DNA of 64,000 nucleotides from an uncultured Gammaproteobacteria bacterium (GTDB lineage Bacteria; Patescibacteriota; Patescibacteriia; UBA1558; GWA2-36-10): contig CAZWIT010000003.1 in the NCBI GenBank assembly GCA_964633905.1, forward strand, positions 67,193 to 131,192. The letters run 5' to 3'. The notes beneath the pieces were generated by a model. It saw only the letters and a program-made list of their open reading frames with translations, did no database searches and was not told the origin of the DNA. The translations under genes were made by a program, and so were the position numbers. This document shows, one piece after another, positions 7,019-62,061 of the stretch (position 1 is the first letter of the stretch; each line of letters opens with the position of its first letter).

Positions 7019-7453
7019 TTAGTTATTGCTTGGAGCTTCGGCTTTAGGTCCCATGCCTTGACCCATGCCTCTACCACCCATATGACCCATTGGTCCAAAC
7101 ATACCTAATTCATCAAATATAGCTTTGGCCTCATCTCTCTTGCCATCTTGCATTAACTGATGAGCTTGCGTTAACTTATTGAAAGTATCCTGGTTAATTT
7201 TAGCTTCCAAATCTGTGGCTTGCTGGCGCATCTCACTAACTCTAGTAGTCATAGCCTGTTGCCAAGCGCTATAATCGTTGTTAGTAATAGATTGTTGGAC
7301 TGCTTCTACTTGTTGACGCTTAGCGTCGTTATCACCACTATTTATACCCGCTCCCATACCTCTACCGCCAAAAGCAAAAGTAGTGGCACTAACTGCAGCT
7401 GTGGTCAAAATCAGACCTAAAACTGCTACTAGTAAATATTGTTTTTTGTTCAT
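7019..7453 (-). CDS. Periplasmic Spy/CpxP/ZraP-family protein with Gly/Met-rich tail
   Basis: Signal peptide, helical LTQAHQLMQ/ATDLEAKINQ segments, C-terminal GPMGHMGGRGMGQGMGP repeats as in ZraP. Confidence 0.5.
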   Translation of the reverse strand: MNKKQYLLVAVLGLILTTAAVSATTFAFGGRGMGAGINSGDNDAKRQQVEAVQQSITNNDYSAWQQAMTTRVSEMRQQATDLEAKINQDTFNKLTQAHQLMQDGKRDEAKAIFDELGMFGPMGHMGGRGMGQGMGPKAEAPSNN

Positions 7454-14907: not shown

Positions 14908-16215
14908 ATGAAAAAAATATCAACTATATTAACAATCTTAAGTATATCAATACTTTCGATATTTTTGAGCAATAGCGCCAAAGCTAGCAGCTATACCCTT
15001 AGCCAGGTACAAAGCCATAACACGAGCACAGACTGTTGGACAATAGTAAATAACAAAGTCTACAATCTAACTAATTTTATTGCTCTGCACCCAGGCGGAT
15101 CTAGCGCTATTATCTCTTTATGTGGTACTGACGGCACAGCTGCTTTCACTACTCAACATTCAGGCAATACTACTGCTAATAATACTTTAGCTGATTTTTA
15201 TATTGGTGATCTAGCAGACACCACTATACCAACAACGCCTACTAATTTAAGCGCTACTCCCGTATCAGCTTCTCAAATAAACTTAAGCTGGTCAACTTCA
15301 ACTGATAATATTGCTGTTACTGGCTATGCTATTTTTAGAGATGGCTCTGAACTAGCCACTACCACTAATAATAATTTTAGTAATACCGGCTTAAACGCTT
15401 CTACCACTTATAGCTATACCGTCAAAGCTTTTGATGCGGCTGGTAATCGATCGGCTAGCTCTACTGCCGTGAGTGCTACTACTTTTGCTAGCTCTAGTGA
15501 TACAACTGCACCATCAACTCCAACTAATTTAAATGCTAATGTAATTTCCGCTACTCAAATAAACCTAAACTGGTCTACTTCGACTGATAATATTGCTGTT
15601 ACTGGTTATGCTGTTTTCCGTAATGGCACTGAAATTGCTAGTGTAACAACTAATAGCTTTAATAACGTTGGTCTAAGTGCATCCACAACTTATAGCTATA
15701 CTGTCAAAGCTTTTGATGCGGCTGGTAATCGATCCAATAATTCGAATACTGTTTCGGCCACTACTTTGTCCGCCCCCAGTAATGGCGATACTATTGCCCC
15801 TAGTGCCCCCACAAAATTAAAAGCCCATGTTGTTTCTTACCAACACGTTAATCTAAAATGGAAAAAATCTAAAGACAATGTCAAAGTAAAGGGTTACGCC
15901 ATATTTATGAATGGAAAACAAATTGCTACTGTAAAAAAAGACCATTATAACGTTATTCGTTTAACACCTGGCACTAACTACAGCTTTACCATCAGAGCCT
16001 TTGATGCGGCTGGCAATATGTCTGCTGACTCTAACACTATCACTGTTACTACCAAAATTAAAAAAGTAAAAGAAGTAAAGCTAGAGCACCGAGATTCTGA
16101 TGATAATCGTAATGAAAAAATATCAAAAATAAATGAATTAAAAAATAAAATTAATAATCAACTATCAAATATGAAAGTTGATCAAAAGAAAGACAAAAAA
16201 TCAAATAAAAAATAA
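14908..16215 (+). CDS. Secreted multidomain protein: cytochrome b5-like domain + three fibronectin type III repeats + Lys-rich tail
   Basis: Signal peptide, then SHNTSTDCWTIVNNKVYNLTNFIALHPGG (cyt b5 fold). Three ~90-aa repeats (LSWSTSTDNIAVTGYAIFRDG...YSYTVKAFDAAGNRS) are also visible as DNA-level tandem repeats. Confidence 0.7.
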   Translation: MKKISTILTILSISILSIFLSNSAKASSYTLSQVQSHNTSTDCWTIVNNKVYNLTNFIALHPGGSSAIISLCGTDGTAAFTTQHSGNTTANNTLADFYIGDLADTTIPTTPTNLSATPVSASQINLSWSTSTDNIAVTGYAIFRDGSELATTTNNNFSNTGLNASTTYSYTVKAFDAAGNRSASSTAVSATTFASSSDTTAPSTPTNLNANVISATQINLNWSTSTDNIAVTGYAVFRNGTEIASVTTNSFNNVGLSASTTYSYTVKAFDAAGNRSNNSNTVSATTLSAPSNGDTIAPSAPTKLKAHVVSYQHVNLKWKKSKDNVKVKGYAIFMNGKQIATVKKDHYNVIRLTPGTNYSFTIRAFDAAGNMSADSNTITVTTKIKKVKEVKLEHRDSDDNRNEKISKINELKNKINNQLSNMKVDQKKDKKSNKK

Positions 16216-19770: not shown

Positions 19771-19885
19771 CATTATATCAAAAAACCCCGCCAGAGGCGA
19801 GGTAAACATTCCAAGAGGAATGATTATTTGAACCGTCTCGACCCGCAAGACTCGCCGATGCGAGGCGGGTGGGATCCTCTGCAAG
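19771..19885. repeat. Intergenic repeat family copy, highly structured (nested stems CCCGCC...GGCGGG, GGCGAG...CTCGCC, CATTCC...GGAATG) ending GGGATCCTCTGCAAG
   Basis: Shares the tatatcaaaaaacc start and the GGGATCCTCTG core with the other copies. Confidence 0.5.
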
Positions 19886-19895
19886 AAATTTTTTA

Positions 19896-20771
19896 CTACT
19901 TATTGCTATTTATCACGCCCTCTAAACACTGCCTATCATCTAATAAATAATCACATATGGTATCATCCCCTTTAATGCGGGCCAATGTACTGAAACATTC
20001 ATTTATATTCATCAGACTAACCTTTTTACAATATTCTTCATTCAAAGTGGTTTTTGCATGGGCTATATAACAAGTACTTTTAAAAGGAGCAGCTTCATTT
20101 TCACATTTTTCAACTTGTAAATAAGACAAATCTACTGCCGAAGGTTTTTCTTTAAAACAGAAACATTCGTTAGTACTCTTAACAAACATTGGGCTACTTT
20201 CACAAATTTCTCTACAACCATCCAAACTTTTCGCTGTTCCATCAGCGGGATGCATCCATCCATAACCATTAATTTTCCAAACTCCATTATCTTTTATCAG
20301 ATAAATATACTGCGGTTTTTTTTGACGATTATTTTTTATAGCCATTACCTTTAATACTGCCACATCATTTTTTATATCTACATTATCTATTGTGTATTCT
20401 AAGCCATTAAATTGACTTAAAAACATATTTTCTAAACTAAGCTCCTTAATCTCAGGATATAGCGCCGCCGTTTCTTTTGCTGATTTTAAAAAACTTTCTG
20501 ATGAATATATATAAGAAAAATATTTATCAACATCAACATTTTTAGCAGCAGTCATTGCTTCCGCAAAAACCTCTTCTGGGGTCGAATTATTGATATCAAC
20601 TTCTAAAAGTTTATCGCTATCAGTAATTTTGCCTTCAATATTATTAACATTTAAATCCGTTAGGATATTTGCCTTACCATCGCTAATATTTTGCTGACTA
20701 GCTTTTTTAGGGATTAAGGTGCACCCGGTAATAATGACTGGAAATAAAATTAATAAAATAAATCTTTTCAT
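19896..20771 (-). CDS. Lipoprotein with Cys-rich C-terminal domain, hypothetical
   Basis: Lipobox (IITGCTL). The C-terminal third contains 13 Cys. Confidence 0.55.
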   Translation of the reverse strand: MKRFILLILFPVIITGCTLIPKKASQQNISDGKANILTDLNVNNIEGKITDSDKLLEVDINNSTPEEVFAEAMTAAKNVDVDKYFSYIYSSESFLKSAKETAALYPEIKELSLENMFLSQFNGLEYTIDNVDIKNDVAVLKVMAIKNNRQKKPQYIYLIKDNGVWKINGYGWMHPADGTAKSLDGCREICESSPMFVKSTNECFCFKEKPSAVDLSYLQVEKCENEAAPFKSTCYIAHAKTTLNEEYCKKVSLMNINECFSTLARIKGDDTICDYLLDDRQCLEGVINSNK

Positions 20772-25528: not shown

Positions 25529-25605
25529 TGGTGTCCCCAGCACGGCTCGAACGTGCAACCTACAGCTTAGAAGGCTGTTGCTCTATCCAATTGAGCTATG
25601 AGGAC
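25529..25605 (-). tRNA. tRNA-Arg (anticodon TCT) with encoded CCA
   Basis: Minus-strand read GTCCTCATAGCTCAATTGGATAGAGCAACAGCCTTCTAAGCTGTAGGTTGCACGTTCGAGCCGTGCTGGGGACACCA. All four stems pair; anticodon loop CTTCTAA. Confidence 0.8.
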
Positions 25606-25810
25606 TTATTAAAAAATAGATAAGCTGCCTACATTATAAATGTAAATAAACATTTTGTTTATCACTACTTGTCCCGAGCGTAGCCGAAGGAAGCTATGAG
25701 GACTTAAAAAAATGAACAAATTAACTAATGATTATTAATAATCATCGCTGAGTATAACAGTAATAGCCTATTTAGTCAATCCCATAATTAGTTTTAATTA
25801 GAGCTAAAAT

Positions 25811-34696: not shown

Positions 34697-34723
34697 GAAT
34701 ACGAGTCTTGACACTAGCCTGGG

Positions 34724-35791
34724 CTAGCCACGACGCAGACTGCGCCAGTTGATCGGCTGAGGAGCCACTTGCTGACGCAAACTCTGGCAACGCTCCAGGC
34801 CGAAGCAGTGGAAGGGGCACTCTTGCCCCAAGCACTGCTTGGTTTCCCGGCAGTGCTCATGGGGCAGGTGGTCCGAGCGCACGCCCAGAATAGCAGCGGC
34901 CACAATGACCTCAAACGACAGCTGAGTGACCGGCACGTCCGGATGACTCAAGCTACCATTGAGAAACATCTGGCCGGCTTTCTGGTAGTGCCACTCTTCG
35001 GCACCTTCTACCTTGCCTTCTTGGGCAAGGGTCTCGGCATCCAAGGACTCTTCCAAGCCCTTGGTGGAGCGTTCGCCAACGCGGAGAATGCGCGCCACGT
35101 CTTCCAGTCGCCAGTTCTGCCTGTTGCAGAAAATCTGGACATGCCCAGAAGAACGCTGCACAATCACCACGTCAGCCGCCAGACCGCCGTCCTCGACAGA
35201 GGCACGCGCCATGTTCACAGACATGGTATTGTCGGTCTTGAGCACTGCCAGACGGCAGGCCTTCTGACCGACGACCAGGTCGTGAATTTCGGAATCAGCC
35301 AGCTCGACGCGCGCCGCCTGCCCTCGCTCTTGCTCGGCGTACTTGGCATCAAGTGCCATAATAGCCCAGATAAGAGCATGTTCAGGATCTTTGACGTAGT
35401 GGAACATCAGCTTGGTCAGGGAGAACAAGTCAAAAGGCTGACTGCCTCCGCGTGTGTCGATCCGATGTGTGAATGCCAAAATCTTGGCCAGCGCCGGATC
35501 AGAATCAATCCCTAAGTCCTTGGCTACCAAAGTAGCCGCACACTCAGGACTGGCCTGACCGTTGCGATGTTCGTCAAAACGACCACCGCCAACGCCGATC
35601 AGCAGACAGCCGTCTGCTTCCCACTCTTCTGCCGAGCGATTGTCCGGCGACTTACCACCAGACCAATACTCGACAACAGCCTGATCCACGCCAGGGTATT
35701 TCTTGCTACCCCAGCGCCAGAGCATCCAGATAGCCACGATCTCGTCGAGATGTGGCTTCAGATGCGTCACGATCCTGCGAATATTAGGCAT
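34724..35791 (-). CDS. GC-rich foreign-looking gene: putative metal-dependent hydrolase, MYG1/UPF0160-like N-terminal motifs
   Basis: About 58% GC with CTG/GCG/CGT-rich codons in a one-third-GC genome. Strong SD AAGGAG 6 nt before the ATG. Motifs VTHLKPHLDEIVAIWML and LIGVGGGRFDEH resemble MYG1 THxGxFHxDEALA and DVGGxYD..DHHQ. Many overlapping alternative-frame ORFs are GC artefacts. Confidence 0.6.
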   Translation of the reverse strand: MPNIRRIVTHLKPHLDEIVAIWMLWRWGSKKYPGVDQAVVEYWSGGKSPDNRSAEEWEADGCLLIGVGGGRFDEHRNGQASPECAATLVAKDLGIDSDPALAKILAFTHRIDTRGGSQPFDLFSLTKLMFHYVKDPEHALIWAIMALDAKYAEQERGQAARVELADSEIHDLVVGQKACRLAVLKTDNTMSVNMARASVEDGGLAADVVIVQRSSGHVQIFCNRQNWRLEDVARILRVGERSTKGLEESLDAETLAQEGKVEGAEEWHYQKAGQMFLNGSLSHPDVPVTQLSFEVIVAAAILGVRSDHLPHEHCRETKQCLGQECPFHCFGLERCQSLRQQVAPQPINWRSLRRG

Positions 35792-35962
35792 GAGCCTCTC
35801 CTTCTGCTGCTACTTGCAGCTAGTAATCAAGACTAGGTTGACAATGAACAATCATAGTATTATATCATATATATTAGATTTTGTCAATATTATAAAATTG
35901 ACTGTTTAGCCTATTTTCATTATTATTAATATACTTAAAAAGCTTTAATAAATACTTTATAT

Positions 35963-37944: not shown

Positions 37945-38625
37945 ATGTCTCAACAAAATAAAACAACTACGCTTACCAGCGCTAGCGAAATGGACATTGT
38001 ACCAAAAGCCGGCCAAGAATCTTGGCTTTATTCTGATATTGTTAAAGAACATTTCTTTAACCCTAAAAATCTGATTTCTGATGCCAGTCAAATGCAAAAT
38101 TACGACGGCCTAGGCATGGTAGGATCTCCTGCCTGCGGTGATATGATGAAAATCTGGATTTGGGTTGATAAAGACAAAGACACTATTAAAGATATGAAAT
38201 GGCAAACTTTTGGTTGTGCTTCAGCTATCGGCGCTACCTCGATGTTGTCTGTCATGGTTACTGAAAATGGCGGTATGAAAATTGATCAAGCTTTAAAAAT
38301 TCAAGCTCAAGATATTACCGCTCGTTTAGGTGGATTGCCTACTCGCAAAATTCACTGTTCTGTTTTAGGTGACAAGGCTTTACGTTCGGCTATAAATAAT
38401 TATTTTTTCAAAAGCAATCAAAAAGATCGCATTGTCGAAGAAAAAGCCCGCATCATCGACAAGGTAGCACAAGTAACTGACCACGATATCGAAGAAGCTG
38501 TCTTAGAAGGAGCTATCACTTTAGAAGCTGTACAGAAAAAAACTAAAGTTGGCGTTGGTCAACCAGAAGTTATTCCTGAAGTAGAACAATTAATCAGATT
38601 TTACCAAGAAAAATATTTTGGCTAA
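37945..38625 (+). CDS. NifU/IscU-type Fe-S cluster scaffold with C-terminal extension
   Basis: GSPACGDMMKIW, GCASAIG and HCSVLG (three conserved Cys + His of IscU). Confidence 0.8.
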   Translation: MSQQNKTTTLTSASEMDIVPKAGQESWLYSDIVKEHFFNPKNLISDASQMQNYDGLGMVGSPACGDMMKIWIWVDKDKDTIKDMKWQTFGCASAIGATSMLSVMVTENGGMKIDQALKIQAQDITARLGGLPTRKIHCSVLGDKALRSAINNYFFKSNQKDRIVEEKARIIDKVAQVTDHDIEEAVLEGAITLEAVQKKTKVGVGQPEVIPEVEQLIRFYQEKYFG

Positions 38626-38738
38626 AAATGTCATGCCGAACTTGTTTCAGCATCTCCGGACTTATTATAAATATTTAGAGACCCTGAATCCGCCGGCTGG
38701 CGGATCAGGGTGACAATTATTAACTAACACAAAAAAAT

Positions 38739-41261: not shown

Positions 41262-43010
41262 TTACCAACTGCCACCACCGCCACCGCCAAAGCCACCGCC
41301 CGAAAAACCACCGCCACCGCCAAAGCCACCTGCACCACTGTGAGTAGGTGTAGCTAAACTATGGATAGAATTATTGGAAAAACTATGGAGAGAGCTAACA
41401 AATAAAATTGAATTAAAATTAGACAAGCTTGGGTCGCTATACCAATTTGGAGGCGTCTTATAAATATCTTTAAACTTTTCTGCCCATTGCTCCTCTACGC
41501 CAAAAACAATGGCATAAGGCAAAAGTTTTTCAAAGGTTTGCGGATCTTTGTCTGGTGCGTTATGAAACTTAAGGCGATCTTTTTCAGCTACAGTCAAGTA
41601 CTCTTTAAGACCCAATAAATATTCTTTAGTTAAAACTCCACTTTGAGTTTTTTGAGGCATCCAGCGAGAAAACATCACTACAATCAAGCCTGATAAAATA
41701 ATAGAGCCTGTTCCCCAAGCACCAAATACAGCAAACAAAGGAAAAGATAAGCCCATAATACCCAAGCCTAAAATTAATAATAATATTTTCTGACCTTGGC
41801 CGGTGTTACTATAATATTTTTCAGTTTTAAGTAAAGCCCAAACTTCTTTTTTCCATTTTTCTAAATGCGTATAAAAATCATCTTTTAAATCTGATATTTT
41901 TACTTGCTGTTTGTCATCTACCTCGCTAAATAAAAAGGTCAACAATTCGCTTTGATAATTTTTTAAAGCCTTATCGCTATCTTTTACTTTTTCTAAAATA
42001 AAATCTTCTTTGCTAAACATGCCAGTTTTGGGCTGACGAATAATTTTTAAATAACCATGCGCTGCTAAGTATATTATTTCGGCTGTTAAAAAACTATTAT
42101 TAAAATTTTCATAAACAATTGCCCCTGTTTCTGCTGGGCGTAAATCACTAGGCACATCATATTCAGCAATAATATTGCCCCTACCTTTGGGATCACGACC
42201 CTTTTTTGACCACCAATAATACATTAAAACAAAAACCAAAATAGGCCAGCATAAAAACCAAGGACTGCCCCACATTTTCTTAATCAAAGCTGCCTCTTTG
42301 GCTTGGGCTAAATTTTTAGCCGCGGTCTCATCTAATAATCCCTTGGGCAACTGGGCTAAAATAGTCAAAGCCTGGCCTGCTTGTAAATTAGATTGCTTAA
42401 GTTTTAAACCTGTTATGCCTTGGGTATTACTATCTAAATTTAAGCTTTGACAAGGAGTATTCAAACCACGAGCTCCACTCCAACACTTAAAAACTGATTG
42501 CGTACTACTAGCGACTGCTGGCAAACTTAAATTAACTTGCGCTTGTTCAACTGCCACTAACCAATCAGCACCAATGGCATTCCAATACAATTCATCATAA
42601 TTATCAAAAAATAAAATTGCTCCCTGGACCTGATAATTAATCAAATAAGTTTTTTGACCACTAACATATTGCTTGGCATCACCAATTTTTAAAACTAAAT
42701 AATCCCCTTCTTGATAACTAGTATAGTTATATTCCCTACCTTGATTATCAGTCACGCTAATATTATCAATATCAGTAGAAAAATTTTGACCTTCGCCTTT
42801 ATAAAAAATCGGTATTTGCCTAAAAATACCGTGTCGAGATTCAGACCCAAAATCATAATCAATTTTTTCACTGACTAATAAATTAGCTTCTTTATCAAGC
42901 TGGATATCAACTTGATAATTACTAATTTTTTCCTGCGCATAAACAGTGCTGCCAAAAAATAAAACACCCAAGAAAAAGGTGCTAGCTAAAACTAAGTTTA
43001 ATTTCTTCAT
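41262..43010 (-). CDS. DUF2207-family membrane protein with Gly-rich C-terminal tail
   Basis: Signal peptide, large extracytoplasmic domain, TM segments, C-terminal GGFGGGGGFSGGGFGGGGGGSW typical of DUF2207 proteins. Confidence 0.65.
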   Translation of the reverse strand: MKKLNLVLASTFFLGVLFFGSTVYAQEKISNYQVDIQLDKEANLLVSEKIDYDFGSESRHGIFRQIPIFYKGEGQNFSTDIDNISVTDNQGREYNYTSYQEGDYLVLKIGDAKQYVSGQKTYLINYQVQGAILFFDNYDELYWNAIGADWLVAVEQAQVNLSLPAVASSTQSVFKCWSGARGLNTPCQSLNLDSNTQGITGLKLKQSNLQAGQALTILAQLPKGLLDETAAKNLAQAKEAALIKKMWGSPWFLCWPILVFVLMYYWWSKKGRDPKGRGNIIAEYDVPSDLRPAETGAIVYENFNNSFLTAEIIYLAAHGYLKIIRQPKTGMFSKEDFILEKVKDSDKALKNYQSELLTFLFSEVDDKQQVKISDLKDDFYTHLEKWKKEVWALLKTEKYYSNTGQGQKILLLILGLGIMGLSFPLFAVFGAWGTGSIILSGLIVVMFSRWMPQKTQSGVLTKEYLLGLKEYLTVAEKDRLKFHNAPDKDPQTFEKLLPYAIVFGVEEQWAEKFKDIYKTPPNWYSDPSLSNFNSILFVSSLHSFSNNSIHSLATPTHSGAGGFGGGGGFSGGGFGGGGGGSW

Positions 43011-47022: not shown

Positions 47023-49995
47023 ATGCTACGCCAAGTCAAAAAACGTTCGGGCCAAGTTGAAAGCTTTGATCAAGCTAAAATCATCTTTTCTTTAAAAAAT
47101 GTCCTTGTCCACGCTGGTCTGCCGGACAACCCTTTGACTGATAAATTTACCCAGCAAGTTGTCAAATACATTGATAATATTTATGGCGACGAAGAAGTGA
47201 TTACCAGCGACGATGTGCGTAGCGCTGTAAATATTGTCCTACTAGAAAATAACCTTCCCCAAATTGCTAAAGCCTATTTTCAAACTCGCAATACTAAACT
47301 TGACGGTCAGCAAAAAATATTTTCTAATATTACTAAAATTCGTAAACGCGACGGCACCATTGTTGATTTTGACCGCACCAAAGTCTTTAATGCTATTTAT
47401 AAAGCAGGACAGGCTAGCCAAGAATTTGATGAAATTGAAGCTAAAAAACTAGGCGATATTGTAAATTCTATTTTAGAGCACAAATATGACGGCCACACTA
47501 TTCCTAGTGTTGAGCAAATCCAAGATATTATTGAAATCATCTTGATCCAGTCAAACTGGGCTAAAACTGCTAAAGCTTTTATCCTCTATCGTGAAGAGCG
47601 TAAAAAAATCCGTTTAGAGCAAGGCAAAGAAGTTACTAGCCCTGAAGTCAAAGCTTTAGAAGAACGCGGTATTGCTTTAAGCAAACAAGCCAGGCACATT
47701 TTAAACAACTCTATTAACTTTGATGAATTGGGCCGTATTATTTTCTTAGACCGTTATTCTATCAAAGATAAGAAAGAAGACATTGCTGTTGGCGACCTGG
47801 TTATTGTCATTTCCAAAGAAGACCGCAAATATCCTAAAAAGGATTTAGGTATTATCAAGCACATGCTAACTGGCGATCGAGTTGTCTTGCACATGCTCAC
47901 TGGCATGTATGCTGAAAGTGCCAATAATTTTGAATTTGAACAAGACTTATATAAATGCGATAAACCACGCGAATCAATTGACGATGCTCATCGCCGTATT
48001 GCCAAAGCCGTAGCTTCTGTGGAAACTACTCCAGAAAATCGCACTAAATACTTTGAAGCTTTTTTTGAAGAATTAAATAATAAACGCATTCAACCCGGCG
48101 GCCGTATTATGACTGGTGCTAATGTTGATACTCATGGCAACTACACCTCTAATTTAACTTTATTCAACTGCTATGTTTTACCTTCCCCGCGCGATTCTCG
48201 TAAAGCTATTATTGCCGAGACTCTGTACCAGATGACTGAAGTCATGTCGCGCGGCGGCGGCGTTGGTTTGTCTTTATCAACTCTCAGACCACGCTACGCC
48301 TATGTCAAAGGTGTTCACGGCAAATCCTCAGGCTCTGTTTCTTGGGGCGGACTATTTTCCTATGTTACTGGACTTATAGAACAAGGCGGTTCTAGACGCG
48401 GCGCGCTGATGTTGATGCAGTGGGATTGGCATCCAGATGTTTTAGAATTTATTTCTTCTAAAACTAAAGCTGGCCAAATTGAAAACGCCAATATCTCCGT
48501 CATGGTGTCTGACTCTTTTATGAAGGCAGTTAAAAATGACGAATACTGGAATCTAGAATTTCCTGATTATGAAAATCCGGCTTACAAAGATATCTATGAC
48601 AACATTTGGGACGGCGATTTACTAGCTTGGAAAGCAGCTGGCTATCCAGTCCGAGTTTATAAAACTATCAAAGCTAGAGAACTTTGGAATAAAATTATTG
48701 AATCTGCCCATGCTAGCGCTGAACCAGGCATCGTATTTATGGAACGCTACAATAAGCTTTCCAACTCTCATTATTTTAATAAAGTAATTGCTACTAATCC
48801 TTGTGGTGAACAGGGTTTACCAGGCTGGGGTGTATGTAACTTGGGTCATCTCTACCTTGCTTCTTTTGCCAAAGAAGTCGGCGCCGATGATTTAGGTCCA
48901 CTCTATCAAATGGATTGGGAAACCTTGAAAAAATCTGCCCGCACCTTAACTCGCTTTTTAGATAATGTTATTGATCTGACTCCTTATCATTTTAAAGAAA
49001 ATGAAACTAACCAAAAAAACGAACGTCGTATTGGCGGCGGCACTTTAGGCTTAGGCGAATTACTGATCAAATTGCGCTTGCGTTATGGCTCTGAAGAAGC
49101 TAGTGAATTTATCAATCGCATTTATCAAGCCATTACTACTGAAATGTACAAAGAGTCTACAAATCTTGCTAAAGAAAAAGGTCCTTTCCCTAAATTTGAA
49201 AGTGAAAAATTCTTAAATTCTGGCTTTATCCAAACCTTGCCAATTGATATCCAAAACGCCATTAAAGAAAATGGTATTCGCAATGTGACCTTGACTACTC
49301 AAGCTCCCACTGGCACAGTCGGCTCCATGCTTGGTACTTCTACTGGCATTGAACCATATTATGCTTTTAAATTCTTTAGACAATCTCGCTTAGGTTTTCA
49401 TGAAGTCTTTATACCCTTAGCTGAAAAATACCAAAGCACTGATGGTAAACTGCCAGAATTCTTTGTCTCAGCTATGGATCTTTCTCCTACTGACCACATC
49501 AAGGTCCAAGCTGTAGTCCAAAAATGGACTGATTCCTCTATCAGTAAAACTGCCAATGCTCCGGCTAACTTTACAGTTGAACAAACTGCTCAACTTTATG
49601 AACAAGCCTACGAACTAGGTTGCAAAGGCGTCACTATTTACCGTGACTCTAGCCGTACGGAACAAGTTTTATCTTTAGACAAAGATACAGAAAAGAAAAA
49701 CTTAGCCTACAATGGTGAAAAAACTGAAGTAAAAATAGAAACTACTGAAATAGAAGTTAGCATTCCTAATGATGTTTTAGAAATTATGGAAATCCAAAAT
49801 CCAAGCCCCAGCACTAAAACTGCGCCAACGCCAATTAGCCATATAATCGAAGAACTAGAAGAGTTAGATGAACGCTATGGCACGGCTGTTGGCAAAATCT
49901 GCCCTCAGTGTAAACAAGGCGTAATGGTTAAGATGGGTGGCTGTACTGAATGCTCCAAACAGTGCGGTTTCAAGGGCTCCTGCGACATGAAATAA
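47023..49995 (+). CDS. nrdJ: Ribonucleoside-triphosphate/diphosphate reductase, class II (adenosylcobalamin-dependent), with two N-terminal ATP-cones and C-terminal zinc ribbon
   Basis: ATP-cone signatures (VKKRSGQVESFD; IRKRDGTIVDFD), the catalytic region (NPCGEQ, SRRGALM), and a C-terminal CPQC...C..C zinc ribbon typical of monomeric class II RNRs. Confidence 0.8.
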   Translation: MLRQVKKRSGQVESFDQAKIIFSLKNVLVHAGLPDNPLTDKFTQQVVKYIDNIYGDEEVITSDDVRSAVNIVLLENNLPQIAKAYFQTRNTKLDGQQKIFSNITKIRKRDGTIVDFDRTKVFNAIYKAGQASQEFDEIEAKKLGDIVNSILEHKYDGHTIPSVEQIQDIIEIILIQSNWAKTAKAFILYREERKKIRLEQGKEVTSPEVKALEERGIALSKQARHILNNSINFDELGRIIFLDRYSIKDKKEDIAVGDLVIVISKEDRKYPKKDLGIIKHMLTGDRVVLHMLTGMYAESANNFEFEQDLYKCDKPRESIDDAHRRIAKAVASVETTPENRTKYFEAFFEELNNKRIQPGGRIMTGANVDTHGNYTSNLTLFNCYVLPSPRDSRKAIIAETLYQMTEVMSRGGGVGLSLSTLRPRYAYVKGVHGKSSGSVSWGGLFSYVTGLIEQGGSRRGALMLMQWDWHPDVLEFISSKTKAGQIENANISVMVSDSFMKAVKNDEYWNLEFPDYENPAYKDIYDNIWDGDLLAWKAAGYPVRVYKTIKARELWNKIIESAHASAEPGIVFMERYNKLSNSHYFNKVIATNPCGEQGLPGWGVCNLGHLYLASFAKEVGADDLGPLYQMDWETLKKSARTLTRFLDNVIDLTPYHFKENETNQKNERRIGGGTLGLGELLIKLRLRYGSEEASEFINRIYQAITTEMYKESTNLAKEKGPFPKFESEKFLNSGFIQTLPIDIQNAIKENGIRNVTLTTQAPTGTVGSMLGTSTGIEPYYAFKFFRQSRLGFHEVFIPLAEKYQSTDGKLPEFFVSAMDLSPTDHIKVQAVVQKWTDSSISKTANAPANFTVEQTAQLYEQAYELGCKGVTIYRDSSRTEQVLSLDKDTEKKNLAYNGEKTEVKIETTEIEVSIPNDVLEIMEIQNPSPSTKTAPTPISHIIEELEELDERYGTAVGKICPQCKQGVMVKMGGCTECSKQCGFKGSCDMK

Positions 49996-50127
49996 TAATA
50001 AAAAATAAACCCCTACTCCGTAAATAATTAAATATCGATTAACCCGCATCTCGCCGAATCCGCCAGCCGGCGGAGAAGGCGGAAAGGGTTCCTGCGACAT
50101 GAAATAAATAATTTATTATAATAAATT

Positions 50128-50520
50128 ATGAAAACAGAATATTTAGAACTTATCAAAAAAGCCACTGAACTTGCTAAACCAATTGAACACAATCGTTATT
50201 GCAAAAGTGGTCATGTGGCTAGCGCCCTAATAGATGATAATGACAAAGTCTACACTGGCGTTAATATTGATACTGATTGTGGTCTAGGCTTTTGTGCTGA
50301 ACATAGTGCTATTGCCCAAATGACAGCAACCCGAGCTAGTAAAATAAAAGCCATCGTAGCTGTAAATCATAATGGCAAGATCCTACCACCTTGTGGCCGT
50401 TGTCGTGAACTAATGTATCAAATAAATTTAGCTAACCTAAAAACGGAAATCATTATCTCTGAAACAGAAATATTACTACTAGAAGATCTATTAAATCATC
50501 GTTGGCAAGAAGCTTGGTAA
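50128..50520 (+). CDS. cdd: Cytidine deaminase
   Basis: CAEHSA (zinc ligand + catalytic Glu) and PCGRCRELM motifs. Confidence 0.8.
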   Translation: MKTEYLELIKKATELAKPIEHNRYCKSGHVASALIDDNDKVYTGVNIDTDCGLGFCAEHSAIAQMTATRASKIKAIVAVNHNGKILPPCGRCRELMYQINLANLKTEIIISETEILLLEDLLNHRWQEAW

Positions 50521-52016: not shown

Positions 52017-52592
52017 ATGCAAATACTTAAAAAAATTGATAAATTAAACTCGAAACAAGCATTTTACTCTGGTATTATGGTAGGAATATCAATTTTTTGT
52101 TTTGCTGGTTTAATAATTTTACTTAATATAAAATATGAAAATCCCTTCAATGGTTTAACCACCCCTATTCTTGGCATAATGACAGCTTACATTGCATACC
52201 AACAATATAGAATATCACGACATCAATTAAAGCTAGACTTATATAACAAACGGTTTGAAGTTTTTGAATGCATTAGAGATTTATTAATAGAGATACAAAC
52301 AGAAGCCCAGTCTAAGGATAAAAATAAATATTATGACTTTATAATAAAAGCTGATAATTCAAAATTTTTATTTGACCAAGATATAATAAGTTATACAGAA
52401 GATATTAGACAAAAAATTAGCAGGCTTAAATATATTAATATTAGATTAAACGACCAACGTTTATGTATTAGTGAAGAAAGTGAATCTCTAGCAAATGAAA
52501 ATACAGATATACTAGAATGGTTTAATAATGAATTATATGGTGGTATCCATAATAAATTTGCCAAATATATAAATGTAAATACAATTGCATAA
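52017..52592 (+). CDS. Membrane protein with cytoplasmic C-terminal domain, hypothetical
   Basis: 191-aa ORF with 2 N-terminal TM helices. Confidence 0.5.
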   Translation: MQILKKIDKLNSKQAFYSGIMVGISIFCFAGLIILLNIKYENPFNGLTTPILGIMTAYIAYQQYRISRHQLKLDLYNKRFEVFECIRDLLIEIQTEAQSKDKNKYYDFIIKADNSKFLFDQDIISYTEDIRQKISRLKYINIRLNDQRLCISEESESLANENTDILEWFNNELYGGIHNKFAKYINVNTIA

Positions 52593-52710
52593 TTTTATTC
52601 TTAACGTCCGCTCGCCCAAATAATTCTTTAAACTGATAAAATTACTGATTTGAAATAAATTCAGGGTGACAATGACTCGGACAAAAAAGTTGATATAAAA
52701 ATAGTTATTT

Positions 52711-52750
52711 AAAATAAAAAAGCCGTGGCAGGATAAGTCCCTACCACGAC
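52711..52750 (-). terminator. Intrinsic terminator CGTGGTAGGG-acttat-CCTGCCACGG + CTTTTTTATTTT (minus strand)
   Basis: Follows the stop (52762) of the GC-rich 107-aa gene. Confidence 0.6.
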
Positions 52751-52761
52751 CGAACAACTTG

Positions 52762-53085
52762 CTAGACATCGATAACGATAATATGGTCGGCCGTACCGTT
52801 ACGCCAGCGCGGGTTAAACCTGGGCTGGTAAAAAGTATCCCGATAGAGCGGCGATAGATCATCGTCACACTGGTGACACTCGCTGTCCTCTGTCAGCACG
52901 ACCAGAGATGCCGACGAGCCAAAGCCAGCGCTCAGGGCTAGCTGATAGGCATCCTCCGGCGACAAAGGCCAACGCGCTTTGATTAGATCAGATAGTATCT
53001 GAGCATTATAACCGTCGCTACCAGTTACCACCTTCATTACCACCTGACCACCCGAACGCACCGTTATCAAGCCTTGTGTAGCCAT
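52762..53085 (-). CDS. GC-rich foreign-looking small protein (107 aa), unknown function
   Basis: About 55% GC coding sequence. SD GGAGGT 9 nt before the ATG. Own promoter TTGACT-17-TATTAT and terminator. MATQGLITVRSGGQVVMKVVTGSDGYNAQILSDLIKARWPLSPEDAYQLALSAGFGSS... Confidence 0.55.
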   Translation of the reverse strand: MATQGLITVRSGGQVVMKVVTGSDGYNAQILSDLIKARWPLSPEDAYQLALSAGFGSSASLVVLTEDSECHQCDDDLSPLYRDTFYQPRFNPRWRNGTADHIIVIDV

Positions 53086-53188
53086 CTTTTACTCACCTCC
53101 CTAAAGAACGTGCCCTAGTTGACAGAAAACAAAATATAATAACATAATTAATATAAAAAGTCAATAGTAAACAATATAACAAAACTAT

Positions 53189-61760: not shown

Positions 61761-61854
61761 TAATTTACAGCCTTGCTTTTTGCTGTTAAAATTGCTAATA
61801 TACAGTTTCGTTTTGCCCTTTATTATTCACCCTTGCCTAAGAAAGGACTGCCAC

Positions 61855-62061
61855 ATGTTCAAGCCTGGCGACCATGTCCGGGTCATCCCGGCCTACAGCG
61901 GACCGCTGCAGACGGCCCATGTGCGTATTACCGTAAACCACGGCTTTGGCCCCTTCCGGGTCATCGGGGTGCATCCTCAGGACAGAGGCGGACAGGTCCT
62001 CTGTCTGCAGGTCGGTAACCATCAGACAACCGTCGATTCCCGCATCTTCCAGCCGGCCTAG
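61855..62061 (+). CDS. GC-rich foreign-looking small protein (68 aa), SH3/KOW-like beta-rich, unknown function
   Basis: About 65% GC with very high GC3. SD AAGAAAGGA 7 nt before the ATG at 61855. The track's TTG-start extension (61780) is an AT-rich leader. MFKPGDHVRVIPAYSGPLQTAHVRITVNHGFGPFRVIGVHPQDRGGQVLCLQVGNHQTTVDSRIFQPA. Confidence 0.5.
   Translation: MFKPGDHVRVIPAYSGPLQTAHVRITVNHGFGPFRVIGVHPQDRGGQVLCLQVGNHQTTVDSRIFQPA

Follow-up and report, generated by a model that had tools for sequence, protein, structure and literature searches.

Directly downstream of nrdJ, the gene for a class II ribonucleotide reductase (RNR), the 64-kb stretch of contig CAZWIT010000003.1 analysed here (the window) carries an extra block of 112 bp, which is best read as belonging to an old module that occurs in one NrdJ subclade of Patescibacteria only. 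In the module, a linker rich in A+T leads to a conserved GC-rich hairpin, and after it the final seven nrdJ codons and a stop codon appear a second time. Differences between this second copy (copy 2) and the gene end itself (copy 1) are almost all silent, and in four of the six genomes with the module copy 2 closes a short open reading frame (ORF) that starts with ATG shortly past the nrdJ stop. We infer that this micro-ORF could be translated by ribosomes re-initiating after nrdJ, with a product that copies the NrdJ tail, a reading which we hold tentatively and at somewhat less than an even chance.

The duplicated nrdJ end in the window

The nrdJ product contains the RNR barrel and the ATP-cone (PF02867, PF03477 and PF00317 in Pfam) and has a Cys-rich C-terminus (...CPQC...CTEC..C..GSCDMK) with the cysteine pattern C960-x2-C963-x10-C974-x2-C977-x3-C981-x5-C987-x3. 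The final seven codons and the stop of the gene form copy 1, and the duplicated part of the tail contains the sixth cysteine. The original prediction described a 22-bp direct repeat of the nrdJ 3' end with 21 of 22 positions identical, and we found it exactly in its place (GGGCTCCTGCGACATGAAATAA at 49974-49995 and GGGTTCCTGCGACATGAAATAA at 50086-50107, read from the window sequence). The repeat proved to be 2 bases longer leftward, giving two copies of 24 nt (AAGGGCTCCTGCGACATGAAATAA at 49972-49995 and AAGGGTTCCTGCGACATGAAATAA at 50084-50107) with 23 of 24 positions identical and a start-to-start spacing of 112 nt. In copy 2 of the window, the single change from copy 1 is synonymous (GGC to GGT). 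A pattern search of the 64-kb window, on both strands and with up to 3 mismatches, found no match beyond the two copies and 0 in 100 shuffles. The repeat is no assembly artefact, because the stretch is base-for-base identical in the Logan assemblies of two runs (SRR13355620 and SRR13355622).

The 88 nt between the copies are made up of the AT-rich linker (49996-50040) and the GC-rich hairpin starting at 50041 (Table 1), in a window with a G+C content of 34%. The hairpin had also been predicted, and it is larger than described, with three tiers over 50041-50090. In the outer tier, P1, positions 50041-50045 pair with 50086-50090 (AACCC/GGGTT), and the GGGTT strand consists of copy 2 bases. In P2, 50052-50055 pair with 50078-50081 (CGCC/GGCG), and in the apex 50059-50064 pair with 50069-50074 (TCCGCC/GGCGGA) around an AGCC loop. 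No T/U run follows the hairpin, the next bases being UCCUGCGACAUG, and the terminator scan does not list it. An intrinsic (Rho-independent) terminator was therefore rejected, since the GC-rich stem-loop is present but the U run is absent. With Rfam 15, only tRNAs scored above the gathering score in the window and nine related loci, and all matches in 49900-50200 at E<=10 lay far below the gathering thresholds.

Table 1. Features at the nrdJ end of the window
Feature	Coordinates	Strand	Description and basis
nrdJ	47023..49995	+	990-aa class II (adenosylcobalamin-type) RNR; ORF translation, Pfam, 35 related loci
Copy 1	49972..49995	+	AAG GGC TCC TGC GAC ATG AAA TAA; K984-G-S-C987-D-M-K990 and stop
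Linker	49996..50040	+	AT-rich; no ATG, GTG or TTG in any frame; left part not conserved in relatives
Open copy-2 frame	50024..50107	+	27 sense codons (IIKYRLTRISPNPPAGGEGGKGSCDMK) and stop; starts ATA ATT right after an in-frame TAA
Three-tier GC-rich hairpin	50041..50090	+	Fold minimum free energy -28.5 kcal/mol, z = -3.8 against shuffles
Copy 2	50084..50107	+	AAG GGT TCC TGC GAC ATG AAA TAA; first bases are the 3' strand of P1
TATAAT box	50117..50122	+	5 nt before the next ATG; promoter scan, 10/12 match
Downstream gene	50128..50520	+	130-aa cytidine/deoxycytidylate-deaminase-like protein (cdd-like); ORF list, Pfam

Relatives and distribution of the module

To compare the nrdJ ends, we scanned a genome collection for NrdJ, which gave 35 related loci; L045, L053 and L054 were obtained via protein look-ups. 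The relatives of the window are metagenome-assembled genomes of Patescibacteria (Parcubacteria-type). The closest one, L001 (NrdJ identity 97% in amino acids and 88% in nucleotides), is without the block: from its nrdJ stop it is 16 nt to the same deaminase gene, with a TATAAT box 5 nt before the ATG as well. The check which the original prediction had proposed, a comparison of nrdJ 3' ends in relatives, thus gave a clean presence and absence of 112 bp.

Homologous modules follow nrdJ in L019, L021 (the same as L036), L045, L053 and L054, making six carriers with the window. The hairpin core (CCCGCATCCGCCGAAGC ... GCGAAGGCGGA) and the junction to the AAGGG of copy 2 are common to all six, while the first 30 nt past the nrdJ stop are unrelated between carriers (35-69% alike). 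RNAalifold gave one consensus of three stems (P1, P2 and P3) for the six genomes with 2 compensatory pairs, in which the 3' strand of P1 is formed by the G of AAG and the first two bases (GG) of the copy 2 Gly codon, and the hairpin of each carrier adopts this consensus shape when folded singly. Two further ideas about the linker and hairpin were given up. An AT-rich box (TTAAAYA) 5-7 nt before the hairpin seemed promising with four sequences and is absent in L053 and L054, and for an origin of the hairpin in the Cys-finger coding region upstream, no similarity was visible by eye.

Neighbour-joining (NJ) trees were built on the C-terminal 500-700 residues of NrdJ. All six carriers are located inside one subclade of 16 taxa, and the module is absent from the 16 other Patescibacteria and the three outgroup loci from DPANN archaea on these trees. 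Similarity between modules tracks the NrdJ tree: L019 goes with L045, while the window, L053, L054 and L021 share CCCGCATC. Because the carriers form one NrdJ subclade and the similarity of the element follows the gene tree, the data indicate that the module is inherited vertically and is not mobile. The simplest history has one origin and at least 7 losses, and the losses are most simply explained by deletion between the two 24-nt copies; such repeated loss would be the reason why the closest relative lacks the module. To this extent one part of the original prediction, that of a recombination site, stands, as the patchy distribution within the clade fits repeated deletion between the copies. 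For a site of the att type (the attachment sites of integrating elements) there is little support, with no integrase, no cargo and no further tail copy within 14 kb in the window or about 4 kb in the relatives.

The genes straight after nrdJ vary among the carriers (cdd, a penicillin-binding protein (PBP) gene or a hypothetical gene), and L019 has no close following gene. The same variation is seen among close relatives in general (L002, L004, L021, L043, L045-L048 and L053), in which deaminase, PBP, RelA_SpoT, CobO and hypothetical genes occur after nrdJ, while a beta-CASP nuclease gene and a small minus-strand ORF are conserved upstream. Since gene content varies downstream and is conserved upstream, the nrdJ stop is a synteny breakpoint. 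An imported 3' gene segment, brought in by homology-facilitated illegitimate recombination, was rejected because sliding identity profiles show no distinct tract in the nrdJ 3' ends. In L019, about 230 nt between copy 2 and a cobO-like gene (7035-7260) are GC-rich and hairpin-rich, and have no Rfam match, including none to the cobalamin riboswitch.

Copy 2 changes like coding sequence

To describe how copy 2 evolves, we compared it with copy 1 in each of the six genomes. There are 18 differences in total, namely 15 synonymous changes at third positions, 2 changes from stop to stop (TAA/TGA and TAA/TAG) and 1 Ser/Ala change. If copy 2 were free to change and copy 1 accepted silent changes only, 27-44% of the differences would be expected to be silent, and the probability of at least 17 silent ones among 18 is 3e-9 to 8e-6, depending on the assumed transition bias. 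A neutral relic is rejected for copy 2 (P<=1e-5), and, copy 2 being coding-like, it is not a passive footprint. This signal of purifying selection is limited to the final 7 codons; what constrains the middle of the ORF is its hairpin structure.

The two copies of L053 differ at 5 of 7 codons, and every change is synonymous, so that frequent homogenisation or simple gene conversion is no explanation there. Some concerted evolution must be accepted nevertheless, as lineage-specific codons are common to both copies within a genome (TCC/TCC, AGT/AGT and GCT/GCT).

A putative micro-ORF ending in the NrdJ tail

In four of the six carriers, an ATG-started ORF runs from the linker to the copy 2 stop (29 codons in L021, 29 in L053, 31 in L054 and 26 in L019), and its ATG is located 5-22 nt past the nrdJ stop. 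Shuffling of the linker and spacer sequences gave P = 0.001 for at least four such ORFs in six genomes, and the other two frames contain one in only 1 of 12 cases (Fisher one-sided about 0.02). In L021 and L019, indels of +/-1 in the hairpin shift the frame and an ATG is present in the new frame, while the extra 9 nt of the window are in frame. Between the copy 2 stop and the start of the next gene lie 2-20 nt (20 nt for the deaminase-like gene of the window). Given that a Shine-Dalgarno sequence was found for 0 of 62 ORFs in the window and that intergenic gaps inside its gene runs are 2-25 nt, the gap in front of the micro-ORF is like that of an ordinary coupled cistron. The putative peptide is conserved solely in its last seven to ten residues (...G-x-K-G-S/A-C-D-M-K). 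For the window, the length of the open copy-2 frame fits the family of 26-31 codons, and we infer that one substitution, from ATG to ATA, would explain why it lacks a start; the window copy may be non-AUG-initiated or recently silenced.

Read-through or frameshifting from nrdJ into copy 2 was rejected as another way of translating it, since the stop-to-stop offsets (112, 106, 105, 101, 103 and 116 nt) fall in all three frames and three consecutive in-frame TAA codons stand at the nrdJ end in the linker of the window.

In the proposed mechanism, ribosomes leaving nrdJ would re-initiate on the micro-ORF 5-22 nt past the stop, a normal coupled gap where Shine-Dalgarno sequences are not used, read through the hairpin and finish at K-G-(S/A)-C-D-M-K-stop, with the next gene a few bases further on. 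The C-terminus of the micro-peptide would then copy the NrdJ tail including the terminal cysteine, by position one of the redox pair which re-reduces the active site. In NrdJd of Stackebrandtia nassauensis, turnover needs all six cysteines of the equivalent pattern, four cysteines bind zinc, and the third and the last one (Cys-933 and Cys-945) are assigned as a redox pair that passes electrons from thioredoxin to the active site (PMC5704485). By its place in the cysteine spacing, not by alignment, C987 would correspond to the terminal redox-active Cys-945 of that enzyme. The most likely role of such a tail mimic would be to compete for, or to buffer, a partner of the NrdJ tail, either the active-site entrance or a reductant of the thioredoxin type. 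Less likely, the ORF would serve as a relay by which translation of the downstream gene stays coupled across the hairpin; selection on the tail works at the level of its amino acids, which makes a decoy or competitor likelier than a pure relay. The hairpin itself might pace translation, protect the nrdJ 3' end, or do both.

Duplicated nrdJ ends in DPANN archaea

Three nrdJ loci of DPANN archaea (L025, L027 and L035) repeat the tail TGYGAYATGAARTRR once or twice, with a spacing of 44-54 nt and unrelated spacers, and no tail duplicate was found in three other DPANN relatives. Directly after the stop there is a complement of the tail, forming a hairpin with the stop codon in its loop which covaries between genomes. 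This anti-tail pairing sequence is not conserved in the bacterial modules. L035 contains two tandem ORFs of 15 codons (MLHLENVNDPSCDMK) in units of 47 nt, each with an ATG that overlaps the preceding stop (TAATG), and copy 3 of L027 is an ORF of 15 codons with an ATGA overlap. The nrdJ end is duplicated independently at least twice, and these archaeal ORFs are only suggestive of translation.

Two side observations concern the same loci. In L025 (4001-8078) and L027 (4001-8064), the nrdJ matches take up about 4.1 kb while covering about 780 residues of the query, a discrepancy suggestive of intein-sized insertions. Other DPANN relatives have an operon cobO-nrdJ-dut, with a Xer-type integrase gene upstream.

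Alternative explanations

Several observations weigh against a translated micro-ORF with a functional peptide. The middle of the ORF is kept as a nucleic-acid hairpin and not as a peptide, and the frame in which it is read differs between genomes; between L053 and L054 the middle has 4 non-synonymous and 0 synonymous differences, two of which form a compensatory pair. The copy-2 frame of the window contains no ATG, GTG or TTG, L045 has an in-frame TAG three codons ahead of the copy, arising from a palindromic expansion of the hairpin, and in the archaea copy 2 of L025 and copy 2 of L027 lack an in-frame ATG. The six carrier genomes are mutual relatives, so the statistics given above overstate their independence. 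Copy 2 of L053 and L021 is identical at 23 of 24 positions to the tails of the element-less L003 and L004; these tails could descend from copy 2 after deletion, or copy 2 could have been refreshed by recombination, and recombination with functional tails could mimic purifying selection. A catalytic role is unlikely because the micro-peptide has just one of the two redox cysteines, and a regulatory role is conjecture.

One alternative is an untranslated module in the 3' untranslated region (3'-UTR), in which the hairpin would stabilise or end the nrdJ transcript and insulate it from the next gene with its own promoter, while copy 2 would be a passive by-product overwritten by recombination, through gene conversion from copy 1 or exchange with the single tail of element-less strains in the population. 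We consider it doubtful, with a real though minor chance of being right. It agrees with the hairpin as the best conserved part, with its compensatory changes and a 3' strand that ends exactly at copy 2, with the TATAAT box that stands 5 nt ahead of the next ATG in L001 as well as in the window, with the concerted evolution seen in codons shared within genomes, with the near equality of copy 2 in L053 and L021 to the tails of element-less relatives, and with the lack of an intact ORF in the window and L045. But no T run follows the hairpin, no recombinant tract is visible in the nrdJ 3' ends, and the five synonymous differences of L053 mean that conversion is not frequent there. Moreover, differences that arise after conversion should be mostly non-silent, yet 17 of 18 are silent, and both the ATG-started ORFs in the tail frame and the TAATG overlaps of L035 are left unexplained. 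The same 17 silent differences tell against a pure relay, in which translation would matter and the peptide would not, the short ORF carrying nrdJ ribosomes over the hairpin, opening it and feeding the next gene, since a relay has no need for upkeep of the last seven codons at the amino-acid level. We give it little credence, although the lack of Shine-Dalgarno sequences with gaps of 2-25 nt, the position of the micro-ORF 5-22 nt past nrdJ and of the next gene 2-20 nt past copy 2, the freedom of the middle peptide to change frame and the stop/start overlaps in DPANN archaea would all suit it; the downstream genes differ (cdd, PBP, hypothetical), none is close in L019, and the next gene of the window seems to own a promoter. 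There is a small chance that copy 2 acts in cis, as a second site for a protein or RNA that binds the tail, or by supplying a -35-like GCGACA to the next gene. The bases invariant in copy 2 are those invariant in copy 1, and GCGACA of copy 2 sits exactly 17 nt upstream of TATAAT in the window, as such a role would have it. Against this, the spacing and boxes are unfit for a -35/-10 pair in L001 and the other carriers, no complementary anti-tail sequence was found in the 64 kb on either strand, there is no conserved antisense promoter, and the ORF enrichment is left unexplained. An antisense small RNA (with the reverse complement of copy 2 as its seed, followed by the hairpin) was considered and rejected, as the carriers have no conserved promoter downstream of copy 2 and no U-run directly past the stem on the minus strand.

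The original prediction took the repeat for a target-site duplication made by insertion of a small element at the gene end. A footprint of a mobile or integrating element, be it a miniature element whose target-site duplication measures 24 bp or an attL/attR remnant targeting the nrdJ 3' end, now looks very improbable. The likeness is real: as in insertion sequences (IS) and miniature inverted-repeat transposable elements (MITEs), a short insert lies between direct repeats of the target, which stand exactly at the block boundaries, and the closest relative L001 has an empty site. The nrdJ end is a synteny breakpoint with different downstream genes in close relatives, and 17 nt in the apex of the window hairpin are common to it and a second hairpin (38677-38712). 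As in att duplications at gene 3' ends (tRNA, transfer-messenger RNA and some protein genes), the duplicated end keeps the gene intact and the differences between copies are silent. Unlike these systems, the module is a single vertically inherited locus with a repeat of 24 nt, the same in all carriers, with no sign of horizontal spread, and its second copy is coding-constrained; target-site duplications of transposases are usually 2-14 bp in most families. Terminal inverted repeats were not found (left 25 nt against the reverse complement of the right 25 nt, best local score 2-6), nor a conserved left end, and the 88 nt between the copies hold no integrase or recombinase gene and no cargo. A search for further hairpin copies, also proposed in the original prediction, found the arms downstream of nrdJ only, in 490,591 bases examined, the genome of the window itself being searched over 64 kb only. 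Among 902 ORF ends over all loci, the last 18 nt recur within 250 nt downstream only for nrdJ, and there is no third tail copy within 14 kb in the window (up to 3 mismatches) or about 4 kb in the relatives. Public metagenome contigs, scanned for a DNA pattern with both copies, returned only the known L021 contig; two viral pattern scans gave chance matches or nothing, and a scan of viruses guided by protein had no result. Both the distribution and the similarity of the module follow the NrdJ tree, which tells against a mobile footprint.

Comparison with known systems

No earlier description of an nrdJ-tail duplication or of a linked small ORF was found in Rfam or in the literature searched on nrdJ ends and on small ORFs of RNR or of the Candidate Phyla Radiation (CPR). 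The module is best classed as kin to two known kinds, namely small ORFs or micro-proteins from partial gene duplication, and coupled short ORFs. With regard to the former, peptides copying the C-terminus of R2 inhibit class I RNR, and the large RNR subunit is acted on by Sml1 at its C-terminal tail. Yeast Sml1 binds R1 and inhibits RNR (PMC11941123). MicroProteins and Sml1 are like the putative peptide in concept, as a very small protein copies or targets the terminal tail of an RNR subunit and arises beside or from its target. They are unlike it in that there is no sequence relation and that here the enzyme is a prokaryotic class II RNR and the putative peptide has 26-31 residues, 7 of them common with NrdJ, which makes this a working analogy and not a membership. 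With coupled short ORFs the module shares a position few bases past the upstream stop, a span over an RNA hairpin and an end shortly before the next gene, and the DPANN loci show TAATG/ATGA overlaps. It differs from them in that its last seven codons are conserved as amino acids, and we know of no relay or leader peptides that copy the C-terminus of the preceding protein.

Two other systems were considered because of their likeness and rejected. Programmed bypassing is known from T4 gene 60 and from the GC-rich 'byp' inserts of Magnusiomyces mitochondria, and the module resembles it as a GC-rich hairpin insert in an AT-rich genome with the same codons on either side of the gap and a stop immediately behind the first copy; the DPANN gaps are 47-54 nt. 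But copy 2 ends in a stop in 6 of 6 bacterial and 5 of 5 archaeal extra copies, so that landing there would leave the protein unchanged, and the spacing and frame of the module are not conserved (offsets of 101-116 nt in all three frames). Diversity-generating retroelements (DGRs), with their pairs of variable and template repeats (VR/TR), are common in CPR and DPANN, and the near-identical repeat of a gene 3' end, followed by a hairpin, in DGR-rich lineages is like them. The repeat here has 24 nt in place of about 100 or more, its mismatches (C/T and A/G at third positions) are not adenine-specific, and a scan of ten neighbouring ORFs gave no reverse transcriptase domain.

The most far-reaching reading is that the modules define an undescribed class of CPR micro-peptides (with an independent origin in DPANN) which would arise from a duplicated nrdJ end, be translationally coupled to nrdJ and act as decoys of the redox tail, tuning the synthesis of deoxynucleoside triphosphates through competition for thioredoxin or the entrance of the active site. 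We regard this as improbable in its entirety. If it is true, prokaryotes would have in these peptides an equivalent of microProtein or Sml1-type control. Should the micro-ORF be translated at all, it would encode a regulator of very small size that originated from the tail of the protein it targets and acts on an essential enzyme of DNA-precursor synthesis, in organisms with minimal genomes where regulation is almost unexplored, and it would indicate that among duplicated gene ends, which are usually written off as insertion scars, there can be small genes too short (fewer than 32 codons) for automatic annotation to call. Even untranslated, the module is a warning: where a direct repeat encloses a hairpin at the end of a gene and a relative has the site empty, the picture resembles a transposon footprint, and in spite of this look the nrdJ module is old, vertically inherited and selectively maintained.

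Other observations in the window

The hairpin at 38677-38712 has a stem of 13 bp (ACCCTGAATCCGCC GGCT GGCGGATCAGGGT) and is located 52 nt past the stop of ORF 37945-38625, with no T-run. It shares a core of 17 nt, in opposite orientation, with the apex of the hairpin downstream of nrdJ (50058-50074), and in the latter this part is a 9-nt apex expansion specific to the window. Another GC-rich structured stretch (ACCCGCCTCGCATCGGCGAGTCTTGCGGGT; 19785-19890, minus strand), with no Rfam match, is followed by a canonical terminator of hairpin and T run downstream of ORF 19896-20771.

A second duplicated gene end was seen in the window at the tRNA-Arg(tct) gene (25529-25605, minus strand), whose first 12 nt and the T-rich 9 nt upstream recur 98 nt further upstream (25594-25614 and 25692-25712, 19 of 21 identical). 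Besides, ORF 14908-16215 holds an internal direct repeat of 269 nt (15217-15767, 75% identity, spacing 282 nt), and a DUF2207 gene has a perfect 24-nt repeat at 41274-41330 which encodes a Gly-rich stretch.

Many TATAAT/TATACT boxes stand 5-8 nt ahead of an ATG across the window, which suggests leaderless mRNAs. The window also contains islands of 55-65% G+C (34700-35800, 52500-53100 and 61850-62010) which may be foreign DNA, and one of them covers an entire minus-strand ORF of 355 amino acids (34724-35791).

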